64,000 nucleotides of DNA from Candidatus Poribacteria bacterium (GTDB lineage: Bacteria; Poribacteria; WGA-4E; WGA-3G). Every line of letters begins with the position of its first letter. Position 1 is the first letter of the stretch. Shown one piece after another: positions 34,930 through 46,500 of this stretch. The translations under genes and the position numbers were made by a program. The notes under the pieces are model-generated. The model made no database searches. It saw only the letters and a program-made list of their open reading frames with translations, and had not been told where the DNA came from. Location: NCBI GenBank assembly GCA_965205025.1, contig CBDBFU010000009.1, positions 32,001 to 96,000 on the forward strand, read 5' to 3'.

Positions 34930-37929
34930 CTACTTATTTTTCTCTCGGTTAGAACCTTTGAGAACTTCATCCCAATCCCACAGAAGAATTGCGCCATCTT
35001 GCCCTGTACTCATAAGTGTTTTGCCATCAGGTGAGAACACCAACGTCTTCACTGGCGCCGTGTGTCCATCAAGTATAGTCAGTTTGTCTCCTGTTTCCGT
35101 GTCCCATAGCTTAATTCCACCATAATTAAGTCCCGCAACAAGGATGCGATTATCTGGTGAAAATACAAACACTTCAACAATAAACGTTTTGGCACCATGG
35201 GACACTTCCTTAAAAGTGATCTGTTCCTTAATCTCAATCAAACGGATTTGTTTATGAGTTGCCACAACAAGCAAATTGCCATTTGGCGAGAATGCCAATG
35301 TTTTAATACTTTCCTTATAAAGGATGCCACTGTTATCAGTTTTGCCACTGAATACCGGTTCCTCTCCCGTAAAGAGAAGTGCTAACGGAATTCCAGTTTT
35401 CGCATCCCACATCTGCACTTTTCCGTCCTTGGTTCCACTAACAAGTTTTTTGCCGTCTGGCGAAAAAACTAAAGTGCTGATTGTAGACTTAAACTTGCGC
35501 TTGTGCTTGCGCTTGCGCTTAACGTTCTGATATGAGGGGGATATATCAGGGAGAGATATATCAGAAATCTCACCTGTCTCTGTATTCCATAGACGAATCT
35601 TACCAGAATTGCTGAATGCCACCGTTTTTCCATCAGGTGAAAAAGCCACGGGTGAAAAAAATCCTTTTTTCGCAGCCAAAGTCTGCAACTGGCGTCCCGT
35701 CCTAACATTACTCAGACGAACCAGCGGCTCATCCCACTTTATAGGGGCATCTGGGAAGGCTCTATTACCTTTTTCACGAAAACTGACGAGCTTTGTCCCA
35801 TCAGGTGAAAACGTTGAAAACGATGATAACCCATGTTGCCGTCTTTCTAGGTAGAAATCGGTTGTTTGCAATGCATTCGAACCTGTTTTTTGTGATGTTT
35901 TCACATCCCAAAGGCTAATTACCTGATCATAAGCGACACTCGCAAGCGTGGTGTTATCTTTAAAGAAAGTTACTGCTTCCACCTCCATTGTGTGTCCGGT
36001 GATGCGTGTGGGTAATAGATTCCCATTTTTGATATTCCAAAATCGGACTGTGCCCATTGTAGTTGCACCGGCTAGTATGCGATTATCTGGTGAAAACGTT
36101 AAAGCAATGATGCCGCCGGCATGACCTGTGAAAGTGGTGATAGGCTCACCAGTGGCGACATCCCACAATTGCACTGTTTGCTCTGTCTTACGTCTCCCTC
36201 CGCAGGCAAGCATTTTTCCATCCGATGAGAATGCTAACACGTCGACCTTCTTCGCGTGTTTGTCAAGGAGAATAGATTCGTTGCTGTTGGTATCCCATAA
36301 TTGTAATGTGAATGTTTCATCATTATTTTCACCTGCACTCGCGAGACGTGTGCCATCAGGTGAAAATTCCAAGGCTAAAAGAGATGTGTTTCCCTTGAGT
36401 GTAAACAGTATTTTGCCGGGTATTTCTCCGGTCGTTGTGTCCCGCAACTCAATCTCAGTTCCCATTCCAACTGCAAATTTATCATGTGTGAGCGCATAGT
36501 ATCTATGATCAACGATCGTCGGTGTCTGATCTTCCGTAATACGCTTCAACATTCTTTTACCGGTTTCAACATCCAGCCGGAGGAAAATGGTTCCCCACAC
36601 GTCATCCAAACCAAAAAGTGTTTTGCCATCTGCAGAGAACCGCAATACTGAGGCATGCGGAAAAAGACGAGGAGTGAGTTGCATTTTCTGACCGGTAGCT
36701 ACTTCCCACAACTGGAGTCCCACTGCAAACAACCGGTTTCCCTTTCTGTGAGAACCTCCAATACTGCCTGCAAGGAAGTGGCCGTCTGGAGAAAATGCGA
36801 TGGATTCGTACTTACCGGGGAACATGGATACTTCTTTACTCGTTTTCGCATCATAAAGCCACAAACCGATATCGCTGCCTACCGCGAGTAGCGTGCCATC
36901 TGGTGAGAATTGCATGACATTAATTCCACCCTTGCCTAAACGCGCCTTTGCCTTTTCAGGCAATTCCCATTTTGTCCAATCTTTCACAATTTCATCCCCT
37001 TGTGCCTCTGCAACTGCTGCAGAAGCATCATTCGGTTGCTGTTCAGGGTTATTGTGTTTATTCAATGCATTGACATTTTCTATTTGCATCCGCACATCAG
37101 GTTTGGATTCTAAGTTCGCAACAACAGGTGCGTCAATGATCTCAACTGCCATCTCCGAGGTAGCATCTAAACTATAGGGTTTCTGAAAACGTGCCAGGTA
37201 TCGGTGATTTCCAAAACCGAGCATGAGTAACACGACTACTAACGTGGAAGCAGCTACTGCCCATGGGACTAACGGTTTACTACCAGACGGTTTTACGGGT
37301 TTGGTCCGCGAAATCTCACGCATGATATTGTCAGTAAGATTCGGAGTGATTTTGAAATTGTCTAAAGCCTCTCTTATGACCGGTTCTTCTTTCTGTAAAC
37401 GCTGTTGCGCGCGGTGAAGTCGACTTTTAACGGTATTGGCAGAAACACCTAAAAACGTTCCAATCTCTTTACATGACATATCTCCAAAATAGTGAAGTGT
37501 CATGACAGTCCGTTCACTTTCCTTAAGTTTTGAAAGCAGTTTTTCGACAACAATACGCTGGGTTTCTACCGAGGAGCGTTTGTTTTCTGTAGCAACATAT
37601 TCCGAATAAGTTGATTCTTCAGGTTGTGTGCTATCAATCTTCTCTTGCAGTTGGGTTCGGATGTTTTTATTACGTAACCATGTATTGCAAAGATTTGAAG
37701 CAATTACATACAACCATCCAGCAAATAGATGTGGTTTCTTCAAAGTTCTGAGTTGCTGATATGCCCTCAGAAATGTATCCTGCGTAAGTTCTTCAGCAAA
37801 ATGAAAATCCCCAATTTTCTTCCACACAAGGGCATGAACCTGTTTTTGGTATTTTTCAACAAGCTCCGAGAATGCATTATCATCACCTTCGAGACTGCGG
37901 TGAATCAGGTGTGTATCATTGTTTATCAT
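34930..37929 (-). CDS. ECF sigma factor-TM-WD40 fusion, copy 4
   Basis: Same architecture, 999 aa; GGAGG RBS. Confidence 0.93.
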   Translation of the reverse strand: MINNDTHLIHRSLEGDDNAFSELVEKYQKQVHALVWKKIGDFHFAEELTQDTFLRAYQQLRTLKKPHLFAGWLYVIASNLCNTWLRNKNIRTQLQEKIDSTQPEESTYSEYVATENKRSSVETQRIVVEKLLSKLKESERTVMTLHYFGDMSCKEIGTFLGVSANTVKSRLHRAQQRLQKEEPVIREALDNFKITPNLTDNIMREISRTKPVKPSGSKPLVPWAVAASTLVVVLLMLGFGNHRYLARFQKPYSLDATSEMAVEIIDAPVVANLESKPDVRMQIENVNALNKHNNPEQQPNDASAAVAEAQGDEIVKDWTKWELPEKAKARLGKGGINVMQFSPDGTLLAVGSDIGLWLYDAKTSKEVSMFPGKYESIAFSPDGHFLAGSIGGSHRKGNRLFAVGLQLWEVATGQKMQLTPRLFPHASVLRFSADGKTLFGLDDVWGTIFLRLDVETGKRMLKRITEDQTPTIVDHRYYALTHDKFAVGMGTEIELRDTTTGEIPGKILFTLKGNTSLLALEFSPDGTRLASAGENNDETFTLQLWDTNSNESILLDKHAKKVDVLAFSSDGKMLACGGRRKTEQTVQLWDVATGEPITTFTGHAGGIIALTFSPDNRILAGATTMGTVRFWNIKNGNLLPTRITGHTMEVEAVTFFKDNTTLASVAYDQVISLWDVKTSQKTGSNALQTTDFYLERRQHGLSSFSTFSPDGTKLVSFREKGNRAFPDAPIKWDEPLVRLSNVRTGRQLQTLAAKKGFFSPVAFSPDGKTVAFSNSGKIRLWNTETGEISDISLPDISPSYQNVKRKRKHKRKFKSTISTLVFSPDGKKLVSGTKDGKVQMWDAKTGIPLALLFTGEEPVFSGKTDNSGILYKESIKTLAFSPNGNLLVVATHKQIRLIEIKEQITFKEVSHGAKTFIVEVFVFSPDNRILVAGLNYGGIKLWDTETGDKLTILDGHTAPVKTLVFSPDGKTLMSTGQDGAILLWDWDEVLKGSNREKNK

Positions 37930-37999: not shown

Positions 38000-38056
38000 T
38001 AATTATTAAATAAAATGAAATCTATGGTTCGACTTATACTCTACCACAGTCTAATA

Positions 38057-38827
38057 TTACGTATCCAAAGGCACTACATCAGCATATACATAAGTTGGTG
38101 CGGTGTTGGTGCTGGAATGTATCTTGTCATTTTTCTCTTTTGATGTCGTTTCAATATCTCTCTGGACTATTCTACCGGGTTTAGCAGCAACCGGTGAACT
38201 AAACATAGGACCATCAACAACACATGTATGGAATTCACCGTTTTCACCAAGTGGGTCCACACCATCCGGCAAATCTGCGAGAAGGTCTGCATCAAACCAT
38301 CGTCCAGCAAAGTCTGCGGGTACTTTCGTAGGGTTGAGGGCGGTAATAATAGCGCGTAAACCAGAGGATATCATCTTTTGTGCAAGTTCGGTTGTGTCTA
38401 ATCCCCAAACAGGAAAAATCGGTGTGAAACCTGTCCCCTTCAGTTTGTCCTCTCGGTAAGCACGGATCTCTTCCAAGAATAGATCACCAAATGCAAAATG
38501 TGTTGCTGTTAAATCTGCTGGTAATTCTTCTACATCTGAAAGGAATTCACGCATTGCATCTTCATATATTGCATTAGAGCAAGGATACGGAATGGGTATC
38601 TCGTATAAAGGCACACCGAGCTTTTCAGCTTGTTGTTTTAATACCCAAACTGGAGTTGAGTGAATAGATACACGGTCAAATGTCTTGGTTACGGTGGTAA
38701 AGATGCCACGTACATCGTATATATCGGGTTGCTGTCGTAATGTATGTAACCCCCATGCAGAATCTTTACCTGAAGACCAGGAGACCAATACAGGTGTTGG
38801 GTTTATTTTGTCAGTTTCTTTTTTCAT
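38057..38827 (-). CDS. Adenine nucleotide alpha-hydrolase (diphthine-ammonia ligase/MJ0570-like PP-loop ATPase)
   Basis: SWSSGKDS, FGDLFLE, DPLGENGEFHT; start at MKKETD preferred over the longer call. Confidence 0.88.
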   Translation of the reverse strand: MKKETDKINPTPVLVSWSSGKDSAWGLHTLRQQPDIYDVRGIFTTVTKTFDRVSIHSTPVWVLKQQAEKLGVPLYEIPIPYPCSNAIYEDAMREFLSDVEELPADLTATHFAFGDLFLEEIRAYREDKLKGTGFTPIFPVWGLDTTELAQKMISSGLRAIITALNPTKVPADFAGRWFDADLLADLPDGVDPLGENGEFHTCVVDGPMFSSPVAAKPGRIVQRDIETTSKEKNDKIHSSTNTAPTYVYADVVPLDT

Positions 38828-38906
38828 ATTGATTATATAAAGTAATATCTTTGAACACCTTATGGTAGAGTTGTTAGAAAACCACTCTACCATAGGGTAG
38901 AAGTAA

Positions 38907-39470
38907 TTATAATGCCAAAAAGTTACCTAATAGACTCTTTCCGGCAGTTGTTAAAATGGATTCTGGATGAAACTGCACACCCCAAATGGGTAGTGTCTTA
39001 TGACGAATACCCATAATTTCATCCTGATCTGTCCATGCTGTAATCTCAAGACAATCTGGTAATGTCTCTTTTTTTACAATGAGAGAATGATAGCGCGTTG
39101 CTTCAAAGGGATTTTCCAATCCTTCAAACAGATCTGTGTCTTTGTGATAAATCATGGATGTTTTCCCGTGCATAAGACGATCGGCACGCACAACTTCACC
39201 CCCAAAGGTATCCCCGATGCATTGATGTCCAAGACAAACCCCTAAGATCGGAACTTTACCAGCGAAATGTCTTATAGCATCGTTTGATATACCTGCCTCT
39301 TTTGGTGTGCATGGACCGGGAGATATTACAATCCTTTCTGGTGCCAATGCGTCCAATTCCTTTATACCTATCTTTCGACTACGATGAACTTCTAATTCAG
39401 CCCCGAGTTCACCGAAATATTGTACTAAGTTATAGGTAAATGAGTCGTAGTTGTCAATCATTAAAACCAT
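38907..39470 (-). CDS. trpG: Anthranilate synthase component II (glutamine amidotransferase)
   Basis: [34 protein letters not shown]. Confidence 0.93.
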
Positions 39471-39473
39471 CTT

Positions 39474-40985
39474 TTATCTCCTATGATGTAACAAGCCTTG
39501 TTGTGCCATTTCAATAGCAGTGAGCATTGCCCATGCTTTACTGACGGTTTCATAATACTCATTTTCAGGCATGGAATCCGAAACGACACCACCACCTGCT
39601 TGCACGTATGCAGTACCATCTTTAATAACCGCAGTTCGAATGGTTATTGCCGTATCCGCACTACCTGAAAAACTGAAATAACCGACTGTTCCACCATAGG
39701 GACCCCTTCGTGTCGGTTCCAATTCTTCTATGATTTCCATAGCACGTATTTTAGGGGCACCAGAGAGTGTACCGGCGGGTAGACACGCTCGAATAACATC
39801 AAAAGCAGTAAGATTTTCACGCAAGCGTCCGACAACATGAGAAACGATATGCATCACATGTGAGAATCTTTCAACTATCATCAGATCGGTGACCTCAACG
39901 GAGTGATACTCACACACGCGCCCGAGGTCGTTTCTACCTAAATCCACCAGCATCACATGTTCCGCACGTTCCTTTGGATCTGAAATGAGTTCTTTTTCCA
40001 ATTCACGATCCTCATCATCGGTTTTGCCACGCGGACGTGTTCCGGCAATCGGAACTGTCTGGACAAGTCCATTTTCCACCCGTACCATCATTTCGGGTGA
40101 TGCACCAACTATCTCAAAACTATCATACTTCAGATAATACATATAAGGAGATGGATTTACAACTCGTAATGCACGATAGATATCAAAAGAATCCACTGAA
40201 ACAGGACGACTGAATCGTTGTGAAGGCACAACTTGTATTATGTCACCTGCAGCGATGTATTCTTTTGCACGTCGTACAACCGCCTCGTAATCTGATTTTG
40301 TGAAATTTGATGGCGGATCAGGAATAGTATCAACATCACTATCTGATCTATCGTCTAAATTCCTTACTGAAAGCACCTTTGAAGCAGATGTAAGTTTTTC
40401 TACCAACGAATCGATTTTAGCAATCGCATCTGTATACGCTGTATCTACATTTCCATCAATATGTGCATTGGCAACAACTTTAATCTGATGGTTAACATGA
40501 TCGAATATAAGGATCGTATCGGCAATCATGAAAAAGCAATCCGGCACCTGCAGTTCATCTTCGTTTGTATCAGGTAATTCTTCCACGAAACGCACCATAT
40601 CATAGGTCATATAACCAACTGCCCCACCATGGAATTCTGGTAGCCCATCAACACTGACGGGTTGATATTGCTGCATCAATTCTTCAAGTGCACTCAGCGG
40701 ATCATCGTACTCTTTGACTACTTTTTCTCTTTTTCCAAAGTCCTCTATGGTAACCTCGTTTCCTTTGCTTTGGAAGAGAATAGAGGGTTGGCTGCCCAAA
40801 AAAGAATATCGAGCGACTTTCTCACCACCTTCAACACTTTCCAAAAGGAACGCGAATTCATCAGGCATTAATTTGTAAAAAGCAGATACTGGTGTCTCCA
40901 TATCTGCCAAGATAGGTCGATAAACAGGTATCGTGTTCCCCTGTTTTGCTTTTACCTGAAATTCTTGTAATGTAGGATAATACAT
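39474..40985 (-). CDS. trpE: Anthranilate synthase component I
   Basis: FLLES, NPSPYM (Trp feedback motif), PIAGTRPRG, EHVMLVDLGRND, GTLSGAPKIRAM. Confidence 0.96.
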   Translation of the reverse strand: MYYPTLQEFQVKAKQGNTIPVYRPILADMETPVSAFYKLMPDEFAFLLESVEGGEKVARYSFLGSQPSILFQSKGNEVTIEDFGKREKVVKEYDDPLSALEELMQQYQPVSVDGLPEFHGGAVGYMTYDMVRFVEELPDTNEDELQVPDCFFMIADTILIFDHVNHQIKVVANAHIDGNVDTAYTDAIAKIDSLVEKLTSASKVLSVRNLDDRSDSDVDTIPDPPSNFTKSDYEAVVRRAKEYIAAGDIIQVVPSQRFSRPVSVDSFDIYRALRVVNPSPYMYYLKYDSFEIVGASPEMMVRVENGLVQTVPIAGTRPRGKTDDEDRELEKELISDPKERAEHVMLVDLGRNDLGRVCEYHSVEVTDLMIVERFSHVMHIVSHVVGRLRENLTAFDVIRACLPAGTLSGAPKIRAMEIIEELEPTRRGPYGGTVGYFSFSGSADTAITIRTAVIKDGTAYVQAGGGVVSDSMPENEYYETVSKAWAMLTAIEMAQQGLLHHRR

Positions 40986-41124
40986 GAGTGATTCCTCTTC
41001 ATATCATAAGCATCTAAGTTATGTACTCTTAATAACTAATAGTTGTTATACAATTCTTTTCTATGGCCACCACTACTTATTCTATTGATCAGATGCTATG
41101 CTATGAGTTGGATAACATTCAATA

Positions 41125-41505
41125 CTAATAAACAGCATCTGCATCGAAAATCTTATCTCCAACAATAGTAGTTGACTCTCCATTGGGGGAGACTTCCCTA
41201 AAAAAGCAGGACCGATACCCTTGATGGCATGCTGCAACCTTCTGTTCAACCTTAAACAGCAGGGCATCACCATCACAATCAACTGCCATTGACTTGACAG
41301 TTTGGGTGTGTCCTGAAGTCTCCCCCTTTATCCACAACTTCTGGCGGGAACGACTCCAAAAACATACTCGACCTGTTGACAAAGTCTGTTTGATCGCTTC
41401 TTCATTCATATATCCAAGCATTAGTATTTCATTGTTTGTACTATCTTGGATAATAGCTGCGACCAAACCATCACTATCATATTTCAGTTCAGATAGAATC
41501 TTCAT
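41125..41505 (-). CDS. hisI: Phosphoribosyl-AMP cyclohydrolase
   Basis: [32 protein letters not shown]; AGGAGG RBS. Confidence 0.96.
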
Positions 41506-41526
41506 AATTCCTCCTTCAAACAGTTT

Positions 41527-41571
41527 AAAAACAAAAAACCTTATGCCACCGAGGTAGTGTGTGCATAAGGT
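41527..41571 (-). terminator. Attenuator terminator upstream of hisI
   Basis: Minus strand: ACCTTATGC-(A)-CAC...GTG-GCATAAGGT followed by TTTTTGTTTTT. Confidence 0.85.
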
Positions 41572-41609
41572 CTACAAAATCAATCAATATTAGAATATAT
41601 AAAAATCTG

Positions 41610-41705
41610 TTAACGCGCACACCCCTCCATACTGAAATTGGATCGCCACCAATGCCAATGATCCGTTATAGTATTTAGGTTGGTGTGTGAACTAACAAAT
41701 ATCAT
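41610..41705 (-). CDS. His/Trp-rich attenuator leader peptide MIFVSSHTNLNTITDHWHWWRSNFSMEGCAR (31 aa)
   Basis: Manual translation: CAT TGG CAT TGG TGG CGA; lies between a promoter and a terminator upstream of hisI-trpE-trpG. Confidence 0.82.
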   Translation of the reverse strand: MIFVSSHTNLNTITDHWHWWRSNFSMEGCAR

Positions 41706-41753
41706 CTTTGCAAAAAATATAAGAAATTTATGTATTATTCCAAATTTATTTAT

Positions 41754-41782
41754 ATAATAACATATATGAAATGGGTTGTCAA
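41754..41782 (-). promoter_or_regulatory. sigma70 promoter of the leader-hisI-trpEG operon
   Basis: TTGACA-N17-TATTAT with extended -10 TG. Confidence 0.7.
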
Positions 41783-41963
41783 ATTAAATAATAAAGTAAA
41801 ATTTTCAAATACTTATTAGGGGATAGTAAGCATCAAGGATTCTTGACATACACAGGTTTTTGGAGTAAAATTGACACGGTAAACCCATAATATAAATGAC
41901 ATTGTAAGCATATAGAATTAATAACACGATATATTGAGATAACATTATTAGAAGAGGAAATGA

Positions 41964-43355
41964 ATGGAAACAAGAATTGAGAAGGATAGTTTAGGGGATG
42001 TAGAAGTTCCAGAGTCAGCATATTGGGGTCCACAGACACAACGTGCATTTCTTAATTTCGATATAGGTAATGAACAATTTCCACCAATATTCATCCAAGC
42101 ACTTGCAATAATTAAACATTCCGCGGCAACAGTAAATGCAGAACTCGGTGGTATCACTGAAGAAATAGCAGATTTTATCAGTCGAGCAGCAGATGAAGTT
42201 GCTGAAGGTGGTCTGGCAGACCAGTTCCCACTTCGAATTTGGCAAACAGGAAGTGGAACACAGACACACATGAATATAAATGAAGTGATCGCCAATAGAG
42301 CAAATGAATTGGCGGGGGGAAGCCGTGGAATGAAATCGCCTGTACATCCCAATGACCATGTGAATCGTTCTCAATCAACCAATGATGTATTTCCAACTGC
42401 AATTCACATTGCAGTGGTTACACAGATTCTTAAACGACTACTACCGGCTGTTCAATTGTTACAGGAAGCATTAGAGGAGAAATCACAGAAGTATTCAGAC
42501 ATAGTAAAGACAGGCAGGACACATCTGATGGATGCAACACCTCTAACATTAGGGCAAGTCTTCAGTGGATATGTTCAACAGGTGAAACATGCACAGGAAG
42601 CAATTAAGAGTACTTTATCCCATCTGTATGAACTGCCTATTGGTGGTACAGCAGTAGGAACTGGTTTAAATTCACATCCTGATTATGCTTCCTCTGTTGC
42701 TCAGCGTATTGCGGAACGTACAGGTCACCCGTTCATCACAGCACCAAATAAGTTTGAGGCATTGGGAAGTCGAGATGCTCTTGTATCTGCAAGTGGAGCA
42801 TTGAAACGTCTTGCATGTGCATTGTATAAAATTGCTAACGACATACGGTTGCTCGGAAGTGGTCCACGGTGTGGAATTGGTGAATTGATATTACCCGAGA
42901 ATGAACCGGGAAGTTCAATTATGCCGGGTAAAGTGAATCCAACTCAGTGTGAAGCTATGACAATGGTATGTGCACAGGTAATTGGAAATGATACTACAAT
43001 CTCGCTGGCTGGTAGTGCCGGTAATTTTGAATTGAATGTATTTATGCCTGTGATAGCCTTTAATAGTCTTCAATCTATTCGATTGTTATCGGATGCGTGT
43101 GATGCTTTCAGAGAACATTGTGTTGTCGGCATTGAGGCAAACGAACCAGTGATTGCTGGGTATCTTGAAGCATCTTTGATGTTGGTTACTGCGTTAACAC
43201 CACGTATAGGTTATGATGCCGCAGCTAAGTTGGCACAGAAGGCACATCGGGAAGGATCAACATTACGTGAAGTCGCTCTTGAGGACGGTGTATTGACAGG
43301 AGAGGAATTCGATTCATTGGTGATTCCAGGTGATATGGTAACACCCAATCTATAA
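41964..43355 (+). CDS. fumC: Fumarate hydratase class II
   Basis: [37 protein letters not shown]. Confidence 0.98.
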
Positions 43356-43436
43356 TTGAATAGTTGTGAGTTGAGTAAACACTGAATATCGTCAAAGAAA
43401 TTGATAGTATACCAATTTCCTACGAATAATGTCTTA

Positions 43437-43485
43437 ATATAAAAATGCGTTCAATAGCAATTTACTATTGAACGCATTTTTATAT
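43437..43485. terminator. Bidirectional terminator between convergent fumC and rpoC
   Basis: Perfect 21-bp inverted repeat ATATAAAAATGCGTTCAATAG / CTATTGAACGCATTTTTATAT with a 7-nt loop. Confidence 0.88.
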
Positions 43486-43505
43486 AATATGTATGAAGTC
43501 AGAGA

Positions 43506-46500
43506 TTATTCTTCAAGTTGTATGATCTCTTCAGGTACCTGGATTTCATCAAGATCTGATTCTTCAATACCATCTTTGGAAACTTCCAGCTCCAGCCAAC
43601 TTGAGAATCCAGTACCTGCCGGAATTAATCGTCCAAGGATGACGTTTTCCTTCAGACCTGTAAGGTAATCGGTCTGTCCTTCAACAGCAGCATCTGTAAG
43701 AACTTTCGTTGACTGCTGGAAACTTGCAGCAGAAATGAAACTATCAGTACTTAAAGCTGCTTTACTAATACTCTGTAGGAGTGGTTCACCTGTTGCAGGT
43801 GTACCACCTTCATCTGCTACACGTCTATTTTCAGCATGGAACCTACGTCGACTAACCTCATCGTTAGCATAAAATCTGGTATCTCCAATCGTAAGAATAC
43901 GGATTTTCTGTAGCATTTGTCGGACAATTACTTCGACGTGTTTATCATTGATGATATTCTTACCGTAGACAGTCTGAACTTCATCAACAAGATATGTCCA
44001 TACTGCCTCTTCACCTTCAAGTGAAACTCCGTTGATATTTGCTCTACCGATACTAAGTATATCGTGTGGATTCAGATATCCATCCGTTAAGGGTTGTCCA
44101 GCTTCGACAATGTCACCAGCATCAACACGTCGTTTTTCATCGGGGATCGAGTAAAGGCGACTTTTGGCTGCATCATCAACAATCCGATACTGTGGAACAC
44201 CAGCTTTTTGACCCGTTAGCTGCAATTCCCCAGCAATCTCGGCGATTTCAGCTGCATCTTCACGTTTTGGACGTCGTGCTTCAAAAAGCTCAGTCACCCG
44301 TGGTATCCCTACGACAATGTCAAGGTTCGTAGTTTTCTCGTGTAATTCTGCTAACCCGTGTTGTGCATTCACCTTTTCCCCATCTTCAACAGAAACAGAA
44401 TATCCGGCTGGGATAAGGTGTGAAACGCGTCCTCCACCTTCAACGTCAATATCAATCCTGAAGGTTTCAATCAACTCATCAACATCAACACCACCATACT
44501 GTTCTATGGCTCTCTCAAATTCCCAATCGTTTAACTCTTGGCCAACAGTAAGTGTACAGTTTGGATGAATTACCTTTGTAATTTCATAGGTGTTTTTTGA
44601 GGTTAGTGCTGATTTAGCCTTGTAATCAGCATCACTTAAAATTTCATCTTTAGTAACCTCAGATCCAGAGTCGTTAACTGCCGTGACTTTATACACGCGA
44701 TCAGTATCAAAACCCTTATAAAGACGTTGTGCCTTCTTGTATTCATTCTCATCAATTTCCTGTTGTGGGACAAGTGCACAATCTTCATGATGAACAGCAA
44801 GGATCAAATAAAAACGTTGGATCTCAGGCAATGGTGTTTCTGTGTCTCTATGGTGTTTGACGAGAGCTTTGTGATCTGTCTCAGTCAATACTTCCTCTGT
44901 ATCAGCTCCTTCAGGGGTATACTTGTAAAGTTTCTCAAAATCAAAGCCTTTATAGCTTCTTCTGAATCGATTGGATTCAGACTGAGTAATAACCTCATCA
45001 ACAGCTACAGGAAAATCAGGATGATGAATAGCAGAAACTTTATAAAGCCGTTCAACCTCAAATGCTCCTTCGTTCTTAGTAATGTTAACTTCAAATCCAG
45101 GAAATTCCTTAAGAACAGCCTTTTTCTCATTCTCGGTGAGGAGCGTATCGGTTTCTAACTTACAATTTGGATGATACACAGAGGTTATACGATATTTAAG
45201 ACGTTCAGCAGAGAATCCACCGAATTTATCTTTGAGGGAATCATAGTTGTCTTGTTCAATCAATTCACCAGGTTTGAGCGGACATTCACTATGTGATATT
45301 TCTGATACACGATACAGTTCATTACTTAAAAGCGATACTTCAAACGCCTTTTCATTTAGGAATCTATCTCTATATTCCGACTCAGATAATTGTTGTCCGA
45401 CAGTCAGATCAACCCCATCAGATACTTCTGTAACTGTGCGTACTGGATCCCCGAGTTCAAGATGATATTGACTTTCCTCTTCAGGGGTTAACAAGTGTCC
45501 TTCCTTAAATGGACAACTTGTATGGGTAATAGTCTGAATTTCATATCTCATCTCAGCGTTAAGGGTGTTCTGTTTCCGTAAGTATTCACTTTCGGTGAGG
45601 ATATCACCCGATGTGGTTCGATATACCCATTTTCCATCGAAAGGTCGAATCTCAGTTTTCCATTTTTCAGCTTCAGTCTCAGTCACTAATGTACCCTCCT
45701 TCAGAGAACTTTCAGGGTGCATTACCCGTATCACAGGATACTGAGGTTCGGAACAACGGAATAGAGCAAATCGATGTAAACAGGCATTATACTCTTGATC
45801 TGTAAGATACTGTCCTTCCTGTAAGGCAAATCCTTCCCCACTATTAGCCTCAATTACATCTGGACGATTTACGGCTTCAATTACCCGTGTAATGGGTACC
45901 ACCTCAAAACCAGGATAACGCTCCTTGTTCTCCTCATGCTGCTTAATAGTAAGTAGTTCATTCGGTTGGAGTTTACAGTCAGGATGTTCAACTGTCTTCA
46001 CTTTATAGTTTGCTTGGTCAAGATGATCAGCAACTTTTTGAACAATCCAGAGTCCACCTTCTTCACGGACTGTCCTCCCAGGTATAAAATCACGAAAGCG
46101 AACAACACCAGATGCTTTAGCAGGGATCTTCCGGGCAAGACGTTCACTCACATCTTCAACCACACCACCCGTATGAAATGTTCGCATTGTTAACTGTGTT
46201 CCTGGTTCCCCGATTGATTGTGCAGCAATAATTCCGATTGCTTCACCAACATTAACCATTTGTCCTGATGTTAAATCAGAACCGTAACAATGAGCACAAG
46301 ATCCCTTTTCGGTCTCACAGGTAAGTATAGATCTAACACGAACACTGGAGACTTCAGCATCTTCTATTATTTGCGCCATTTGAGGTGTAATCATTGTATC
46401 ACTTTCGACAAGAACTTCATCAGTAGTAGGATGAACTACATCCTCAACTGCCACACGACCACTGATTTTAAATCCTATTGATCCGGCACTCGTAGTGAAT

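Follow-up and report, generated by a model that had tools for sequence, protein, structure and literature searches.

What controls an operon that joins one gene of histidine synthesis to two genes of tryptophan synthesis? The question is raised by a 64,000-nucleotide (nt) stretch of DNA from a Candidatus Poribacteria bacterium (the window, to whose positions all coordinates refer), in which hisI, trpE and trpG follow a short leader open reading frame (ORF) whose codons 16-20 consist of three Trp and two His codons, so that the regulatory codons of the leader mirror the mixed content of the operon. The leader is interpreted here as a classical ribosome-mediated attenuator of hisI-trpE-trpG with an interleaved Trp/His stall window (H16 W17 H18 W19 W20) that would act as an OR gate, a reading that conservation and modeled RNA folding make reasonably probable. 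Its two components are not equally strong. Comparison and modeling together make it very probable that the element is a real, conserved leader-peptide attenuator by which Trp exerts ribosome-mediated control, and the pattern of codon conservation favors, with less assurance, a leader that senses both Trp and His as a selected function.

The attenuator and the operon lie entirely on the minus strand. The source genome (G000) is a metagenome-assembled genome of 5.66 Mb in 33 contigs (38.5% G+C, 95.5% complete), in which His and Trp make up 2.2 and 1.5% of codons, respectively. Poribacteria are uncultured symbionts of sponges, and the locus was compared with pooled Poribacteria hisI-upstream regions, of which 81 were distinct after 6 duplicates had been dropped. 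In the comparative set loci are labeled L, genomes G, families f and genera g.

Anatomy of the leader region

The element is self-contained, spans about 180 nt and is made up of the following parts, given in the order of transcription.

41782-41754, minus strand: sigma-70-type promoter, TTGACA-17 nt-TATTAT with TG before the -10 hexamer (consensus score 11/12)
41705-41610, minus strand: leader ORF with ATG start, 31 codons and UAA stop, MIFVSSHTNLNTITDHWHWWRSNFSMEGCAR (ORF call)
41699-41678, minus strand: segment 1 (anti-antiterminator), codons 3-10, with CACACACC; pairs with segment 2 in the minimum free energy (MFE) structure of the free RNA
41660-41643, minus strand: regulatory codons 16-21, CAU UGG CAU UGG UGG CGA (H W H W W R), read from the sequence
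41628-41614, minus strand: segment 2, GGAGGGGUGUGCGCG, codons 27-31, immediately 5' of the UAA stop; pairs with segment 1 or segment 3
41571-41551, minus strand: segment 3, ACCUUAUGCACACACUACCUC, forming the terminator's 5' arm together with its loop; base-paired to segment 2 in folds that have a ribosome at the Trp/His (W/H) codons
41550-41527, minus strand: segment 4, the 3' arm GGUGGCAUAAGG and U tract UUUUUUGUUUUU (sequence and folding)

Every coordinate that the first-pass annotation of the window had given for the promoter, the 31-codon ORF, the hairpin with its U tract, hisI, trpE and trpG proved correct. A pair of promoter hexamers scoring at least 11/12 is likewise found upstream of the leader in 12 of the 26 same-genus loci scored. 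Segment 2 lies in the stretch that a ribosome covers once it is at the stop codon. The terminator hairpin (41571-41538, with the U tract running to 41527) has a free energy of -16.8 to -17.6 kcal/mol in RNAfold, although a simple consensus terminator scan returned 0 sites and did not flag it.

Conservation of the leader

The codons for W-H-W-W are present exactly in 59 of the 81 distinct regions and, as UGG-CAY-UGG-UGG, in 30/30 loci of the same genus. The whole set divides as follows.

59 regions: exact W-H-W-W, the middle His being CAT in 58 and CAC in 1
11 regions: variant core with His touching Trp (L034, L055, L057, L058, L067, L141 WRHWHWR, L142 and L144 HRHWRR, L143 HWHWGW, L145 HHHWCWWH, L151 DWHWR)
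3 regions: His near Trp (L049 QHFWR, L051 FHHWC*, L069 DHICWWPWW)
5 regions: H/W leader not recognised (L045, L052, L140, L152, L153)
2 regions: upstream sequence too short (L046, L068)
1 region: hisI not adjoining trpE (L146)

Variant cores in which His touches Trp extend to about 52% HisI identity. Of the 59 exact cores, 41 have His immediately ahead of the first Trp, and WW is followed by Arg in 31, by His in 16 and by Trp in 6. A 10-codon window contains 1-4 His, and 3-4 UGG are found in most cores. Beyond the core, leader peptides show no relationship from one family to another (MKYIRSHSSLHRNSNHWHWW... vs MQTLNRQPQFQIASHHWHWW... vs ...RGHHHWCWWH...). In most of the 51 leaders analyzed the distance from an in-frame ATG to the first Trp codon is exactly 48 nt and a stop codon follows 45-51 nt past the start of the core, and changes in leader length involve whole codons and keep the frame, as in WHWW to WHWWW. 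Such conservation of start, stop, frame and H/W core, combined with whole-codon changes, is the signature of a translated frame in which the W and H codons are both constrained.

Runs of Trp and His also occur elsewhere in the genome. A six-frame scan of its 5.66 Mb for W/H runs of at least four residues in short stop-to-stop frames gave 37 matches, of which 12 were inspected, and the 11 of these other than the leader were not leader-like, most lying within apparently coding sequence but in another reading frame, and none being followed closely by a biosynthetic gene. Judged on sequence, the leader arrangement exceeds chance, and the deciding evidence is an ORF, a frame and an H/W core that are conserved across families.

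Three of the less regular loci show further features. In L034 and L057 the W-H-W-W core is interrupted by a 33-45-nt in-frame insertion (HHW-LVPHCEDPENRE-WH and HW-QCEAKTNSTHTGRI-WWH), these being either real variants or assembly artefacts. In L152 (G098, f1 g12) a GC-rich unit of about 60 nt (…CCACGATCGCGGGGGACAGGCCCCCGCGCTACGAAAAAAA…) is repeated at least five times within the 450 nt upstream of hisI, at the position that the leader occupies in sister genera, and the leader of this locus may have been displaced or lost.

Switching between alternative RNA structures

The MFE structure of the free leader RNA contains a long 1:2 helix (codons 3-10 with codons 27-31) together with the terminator, the 5' part having a free energy of -29.9 kcal/mol, and 1:2 pairing is found in the MFE of the source genome and of several relatives. 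The switch was modeled at the stage when segment 4 has yet to be transcribed, with folding restricted to RNA lying downstream of the ribosome. With the ribosome at the second Trp codon, segment 2 is free and engages the terminator at its 5' arm and loop, with a downstream fold of -14.5 to -27.2 kcal/mol (the 2:3 fold of the source-genome leader, with the ribosome at its W/H codons, is -21.3 kcal/mol). With the ribosome at the stop codon, segment 2 is covered and segment 3 is unpaired (0 to -3.7 kcal/mol). Like the anatomy of the element and its conservation, this in-silico switching is among the things shown here, and it was seen in 9/9 representatives of families f1, f2 and f3. It reproduces the attenuator logic put forward at first pass, in which a ribosome at the stop codon masks the antiterminator and one stalled at a W or H codon frees it. 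The complementarity that had been noted between leader codons and the 5' arm of the terminator likewise reappears on folding as the pairing of codons 27-31 with that arm and its loop.

The 2:3 duplex of the source genome is stronger than that of shuffled sequence (-21.2 vs a shuffle mean of -12.8). Against shuffled versions of segment 2 the median z over the leaders is -2.6, and in 31/51 of them no more than 5 of 300 shuffles do as well, the weak cases including L036 and L060, whose segment 2 fell outside the fixed window. All 51 leaders have a terminator, with free energies of -15.4 to -23 kcal/mol. The terminators differ by family (CCUUAUGCACAC...GUGGCAUAAGG vs GCCGUAGGCAUAC...GUCUACGGC) and segment 2 varies in step with them (GUGUGCGCG vs GUGUGCCUU or GUAUGCC), the terminator loop (ACCUC, CCCC, CUCCC) staying complementary to the G-rich start of segment 2. 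The stop codon also keeps its position relative to segment 2. In L060/L149, where the ORF is shorter, segment 2 directly follows the stop, and in the g9 form, where the ORF is longer, the stop lies 12 nt beyond segment 2.

Tryptophan alone, or tryptophan and histidine

Is histidine sensed as well? The dual reading had been given a test beforehand, a plain trp attenuator being expected to keep its 'WWR' and to leave His unconserved, and it survives this test, with the middle His kept in 59/59 exact cores and the Arg of 'WWR' in 31/59. Across three families the middle His matches the Trp codons in its degree of conservation, and His adjoins Trp in the distant families f5 and f7 (HisI identity 52-65%) despite an unrelated flanking peptide. 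The core of f5 g15, HRHWRR..H, has one Trp and 3-4 His. A further comparison is provided by five genomes in which trpE is not preceded by hisI. Four of them have a homologous leader directly before trpE and the fifth has none; the four cores contain either no His (KRWWYTSW, NWCWWWR) or one (RRWCHISW, SRWRHIDR), and W-H-W occurs in none of them, in a control that is small, limited to two genera and not clean. No His leader was found upstream of the stand-alone hisI of the genomes with hisI-less operons (f4 g4). The conservation of the middle His, the f5 g15 core and the hisI-less leaders together argue that the His codons are selected. Since codons 16-20 share one stall window, any hungry codon within it should, from the mechanism, act alike structurally.

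An alternative is that only the Trp codons are the selected sensor and that His is kept for a codon context that slows decoding beside UGG, for an effect of the peptide in the exit tunnel or for an RNA constraint on UGGCAUUGGUGG, a response to His starvation then being a by-product. A number of observations fit this alternative and weigh against a histidine input. Trp codons dominate most cores, and the His codons are few and form no long run of the kind seen in hisL or in some Firmicutes His leaders, for which one report gives 3-5 consecutive His codons (PMC9413887). The hisI-linked loci L045 (CERWDS) and L069 (DHICWWPWW) have no His beside Trp, two of the four hisI-less leaders retain one, and five regions, L045 among them, gave no recognisable H/W leader. 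The tRNA-His and tRNA-Trp genes of the source genome are each single-copy, which is in keeping with the attenuator reading and neutral or unfavorable to a histidine input. The middle His shows almost no synonymous variation, as expected under an RNA-sequence constraint, and the CAU may be kept for a reason that lies in the RNA or in the peptide. The near-uniform CAT is, however, uninformative in itself, because CAT is simply the commoner His codon of the genome (70%). Moreover, His beside Trp persists where the flanking nucleotides and peptides differ completely, the single Trp of the f5 g15 core is accompanied by several His, and stalling at a hungry His codon within the same window should be unavoidable, given the mechanism and given that trp attenuation in E. 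coli is partly relieved by starvation for Arg. Hence control by Trp alone is considered unlikely, and the dual Trp/His leader is the reading carried forward.

Is the control ribosome-mediated?

A more radical alternative is that translation plays no part, the hairpin and U tract being a constitutive terminator, or one controlled by a factor (a protein-, tRNA- or metabolite-binding leader), and the ORF being untranslated or incidental. Several results point in this direction, or at least away from a simple ribosome-driven switch. The leader ORF of the source genome is not preceded by a Shine-Dalgarno match, and about 16/51 leaders have an SD-like match (4 nt or longer) ahead of the in-frame ATG; an A-rich stretch 5' of the leader ATG may, on our assumption, suffice for initiation. 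Column covariation, evaluated in an alignment of 37 family-f1 leaders (genus g1 and some sister genera), is not significant. The 1:2 helix columns have 64.4% of cells paired vs 64.9% in shuffles, and a slide of -2 is equally good. For the 2:3 columns 73.7% are paired, a value reached by 72/500 shuffles, with slid registers at 28-46%, and RNAalifold found no compensatory pairs in the family alignment. This lack of significance is attributed to stems that are nearly invariant within the family, as is the terminator stem in all 37 aligned leaders.

Folding of the complete transcript at equilibrium does not discriminate between ribosome positions either, the terminator having a probability of 0.95-1.0 with the ribosome at the W/H codons (in a set of which one row, L028, has a wrongly chosen terminator). 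As the terminator wins at equilibrium, the switch must be kinetic, as in E. coli trp. A ribosome mask that permits pairing around the ribosome was uninformative. Segment 1, furthermore, lies upstream of the footprint of the stalled ribosome and not within it, and blocking of the 1:2 helix by that ribosome is an assumption based on sterics and trailing ribosomes. Of the lines of evidence suggested at first pass, the comparison of hisI-upstream regions yielded conserved H/W codons (59/81 exact, with 11 variants) and no significant covariation of the stems, and folding with leader codons masked yielded a switch for the downstream RNA and none for the full transcript at equilibrium.

A translation-independent terminator nevertheless leaves unaccounted for an ORF that keeps its start, frame, length and H/W core from family to family as its other codons drift, and a stop codon that always lies where a terminating ribosome covers segment 2, including in L060/L149 and the g9 form. 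Nor did an Rfam cmscan of 38000-45000 at E values up to 10 detect a candidate for such a factor-controlled leader: it gave no match to Trp_leader (RF00513), His_leader (RF00514), a T-box, a riboswitch or any other leader, the sole matches being chance microRNA and small nucleolar RNA hits, of which the best falls on a palindrome at 43432-43492. This alternative is therefore judged very improbable. Still harder to credit is that the W-H-W-W peptide itself acts, as an arrest peptide sensing a free ligand like TnaC or in trans like Sinorhizobium peTrpL, with codon starvation not the main signal, for although the core is strongly conserved and reports on TnaC (PMC8429421) and peTrpL (PMC7298713) provide precedents, different families have no peptide sequence in common beyond the core, the genes controlled serve biosynthesis and not catabolism, and the full 1:2, 2:3 and 3:4 layout explains the regulation with no peptide function.

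The operon and its genomic context

The genes downstream of the attenuator are the following.

41505-41125, minus strand: hisI, phosphoribosyl-AMP cyclohydrolase, 126 aa (NF000768, 172.6 bits vs a cut-off of 126)
40985-39474, minus strand: trpE, anthranilate synthase component I, 503 aa (TIGR00564, 589 bits vs a cut-off of 517.7)
39470-38907, minus strand: trpG, glutamine amidotransferase component II, 187 aa (TIGR00566, 276.9 bits vs a cut-off of 121)
38893-38057, minus strand: PP-loop ATP pyrophosphatase-like gene, 278 aa (weak NCBIfam matches, all below cut-off, Dph6 / PAB0415 family)

A Shine-Dalgarno site (GAAGGAGG) precedes hisI, which is the sole PF01502 (PRA-CH) match in the genome, just as trpE is the sole match to PF00425 (chorismate-binding enzyme). 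The PP-loop-like gene starts 13 nt past trpG and is possibly the final gene of the operon; it also follows trpG in L059, L063 and L068, and in L060 it lies upstream of hisI on the opposite strand. The remaining his and trp genes that were located (two trpF-like genes, two hisA/hisF genes, trpD with a likely trpC, and trpA) are dispersed over other contigs, and no W- or H-rich leader was seen before trpD, trpA, trpF, hisA or hisF in the five upstream regions of the source genome that were inspected.

The order hisI-trpE-trpG is kept in 20/20 loci from other genera of the same order. In addition, hisI directly precedes trpE in the single loci L072, L080, L083, L098 and L119 (Sumerlaeales, Actinomycetes, Planctomycetia, Tessaracoccus and Thermoanaerobaculaceae), showing that the his-trp junction recurs across phyla, and no comparable leader was seen upstream of hisI in these loci from outside the Poribacteria. 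A hisF-hisI-x-trpE-trpG cluster is absent from the four Verrucomicrobia hisI loci compared. The hisI-trpE spacer measures 4-81 nt in 19/20 of the other-genus loci (L033-L052) and in L069, and 115 nt in L052, and it is expanded to 41-1649 nt in family f1. The expanded f1 spacers contain differing repeats, such as GGATGGAAGGGTGGAAG-type tandem repeats (L016/L017) and hairpin-forming units (L005, L022, L026) that resemble repetitive extragenic palindromic (REP) sequences. A second trp leader was considered in the hisI-trpE gap of the source genome and rejected, as the TGGTGG found there has no start codon and is not conserved.

Three other features of the window and genome may be recorded. The near-perfect palindrome at 43432-43492, on both strands of which the spurious Rfam microRNA matches fall, lies between a convergent fumC-like gene (41964-43355, plus strand) and a 1867-aa ORF (49109-43506, minus strand), and is probably a bidirectional terminator. 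A 999-aa ORF (34930-37929, minus strand) matches extracytoplasmic function (ECF) sigma-70 factors (SigW-like) over its first ~180 residues, and would represent the fusion of a sigma factor with a C-terminal extension of great length. On contig C14 of the source genome a gene-poor stretch of 1.2 kb upstream of trpD (~337143-338330) contains CACAAACTGGAAAGTTTGTG-type palindromes and GGAGATCGCTCCTACAGAAGAG repeats that look like REP elements or miniature inverted-repeat transposable elements.

Proposed mechanism and its significance

According to the proposed mechanism, transcription would be initiated close to 41750, at the promoter. If the leader carries no ribosome, or if a ribosome at the UAA stop covers segment 2, segments 3 and 4 would pair, and the terminator so formed would halt RNA polymerase at the U tract near 41530. 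A shortage of either charged tRNA, tRNA-Trp or tRNA-His, would make the ribosome stall at codons 16-20 and separate segment 1 from segment 2, which would then be free to form the 2:3 antiterminator, leading to readthrough into hisI, trpE and trpG. Translation of the leader, termination in vivo and a response to either starvation are what we infer from the observed anatomy, conservation and folding.

Why should histidine be included? The only hisI of the genome sits behind what would originally have been a Trp attenuator, and if the leader had no His codons, sufficiency of Trp would presumably silence histidine synthesis. The two inputs could thus have been selected as an OR gate in which the His codons are kept to rescue a sole hisI trapped behind a Trp attenuator, and decay where hisI has left the operon; this evolutionary account is given an even chance. 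If true, this would be the first attenuator to couple two biochemically separate amino acid pathways via one stall site, and a natural case of regulatory codons that track operon content. If the response to His is real, the specificity of an attenuator would have been widened by the insertion of a few codons, given that tryptophan would otherwise silence the sole hisI. The element is small and self-contained, which makes it testable in E. coli or in a cell-free system despite its uncultured host, and it could serve as a compact two-input starvation sensor.

Comparison with known systems

Leader-peptide attenuation is a textbook mechanism that is documented mainly in Proteobacteria, Actinobacteria and a few Firmicutes. 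It is now seen across a candidate phylum of sponge symbionts, for which such an attenuator is first documented here. The element works like the Trp_leader and His_leader families and is not a sequence member of either. An interleaved His/Trp leader was not found described in the full-text literature, a search whose coverage excludes most subscription papers.

The closest parallel is trpL of E. coli and Salmonella, in which, likewise, a short ORF has consecutive Trp codons with an Arg codon behind them (WWR), the 1:2, 2:3 and 3:4 pairings exclude one another, an intrinsic terminator lies ahead of the first structural gene and the operon encodes anthranilate synthase. The E. coli trp leader has 14 codons, and the Poribacteria leader is longer (31 codons), with no similarity in sequence or by covariance model. 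The Poribacteria leader also differs in that His is interleaved with Trp, the Trp codons separate segment 1 from segment 2 instead of forming part of segment 1, the first regulated gene is hisI and the host belongs to a candidate phylum. With hisL and the His leaders of Firmicutes it shares a leader peptide with His codons before a histidine biosynthesis gene and alternative terminator and antiterminator structures. In contrast to E. coli hisL, which has seven His, it has 1-4 His scattered among Trp and controls a single his gene, hisI.

Outside the Proteobacteria, classical trp attenuators with two or three UGG, and with only Trp codons, are reported for Corynebacterium and Streptomyces in a study in which no conserved RNA element is described upstream of his genes (PMC1262725). 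Another study states that leader peptides were known, at the time of that paper, only in Proteobacteria and Actinobacteria (PMC2965389). Actinobacteria thus resemble Poribacteria in having classical UGG-repeat attenuators and, in L080 and L098, hisI adjacent to trpE. No leader was seen upstream of hisI in those two loci, whereas the attenuator of Poribacteria lies precisely there.

Codons for more than one amino acid are found in the multivalent attenuators of enterobacteria, thrL having Thr and Ile codons and ilvL/ivbL having Ile, Val and Leu codons. As proposed for the Poribacteria leader, a single leader peptide there contains codons for several amino acids, and starvation for any one of them leads to readthrough. 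The amino acids sensed by thrL and ilvL belong, however, to one connected pathway family, whereas His and Trp are separate apart from their use of phosphoribosyl pyrophosphate, and it is the operon itself that mixes the two.

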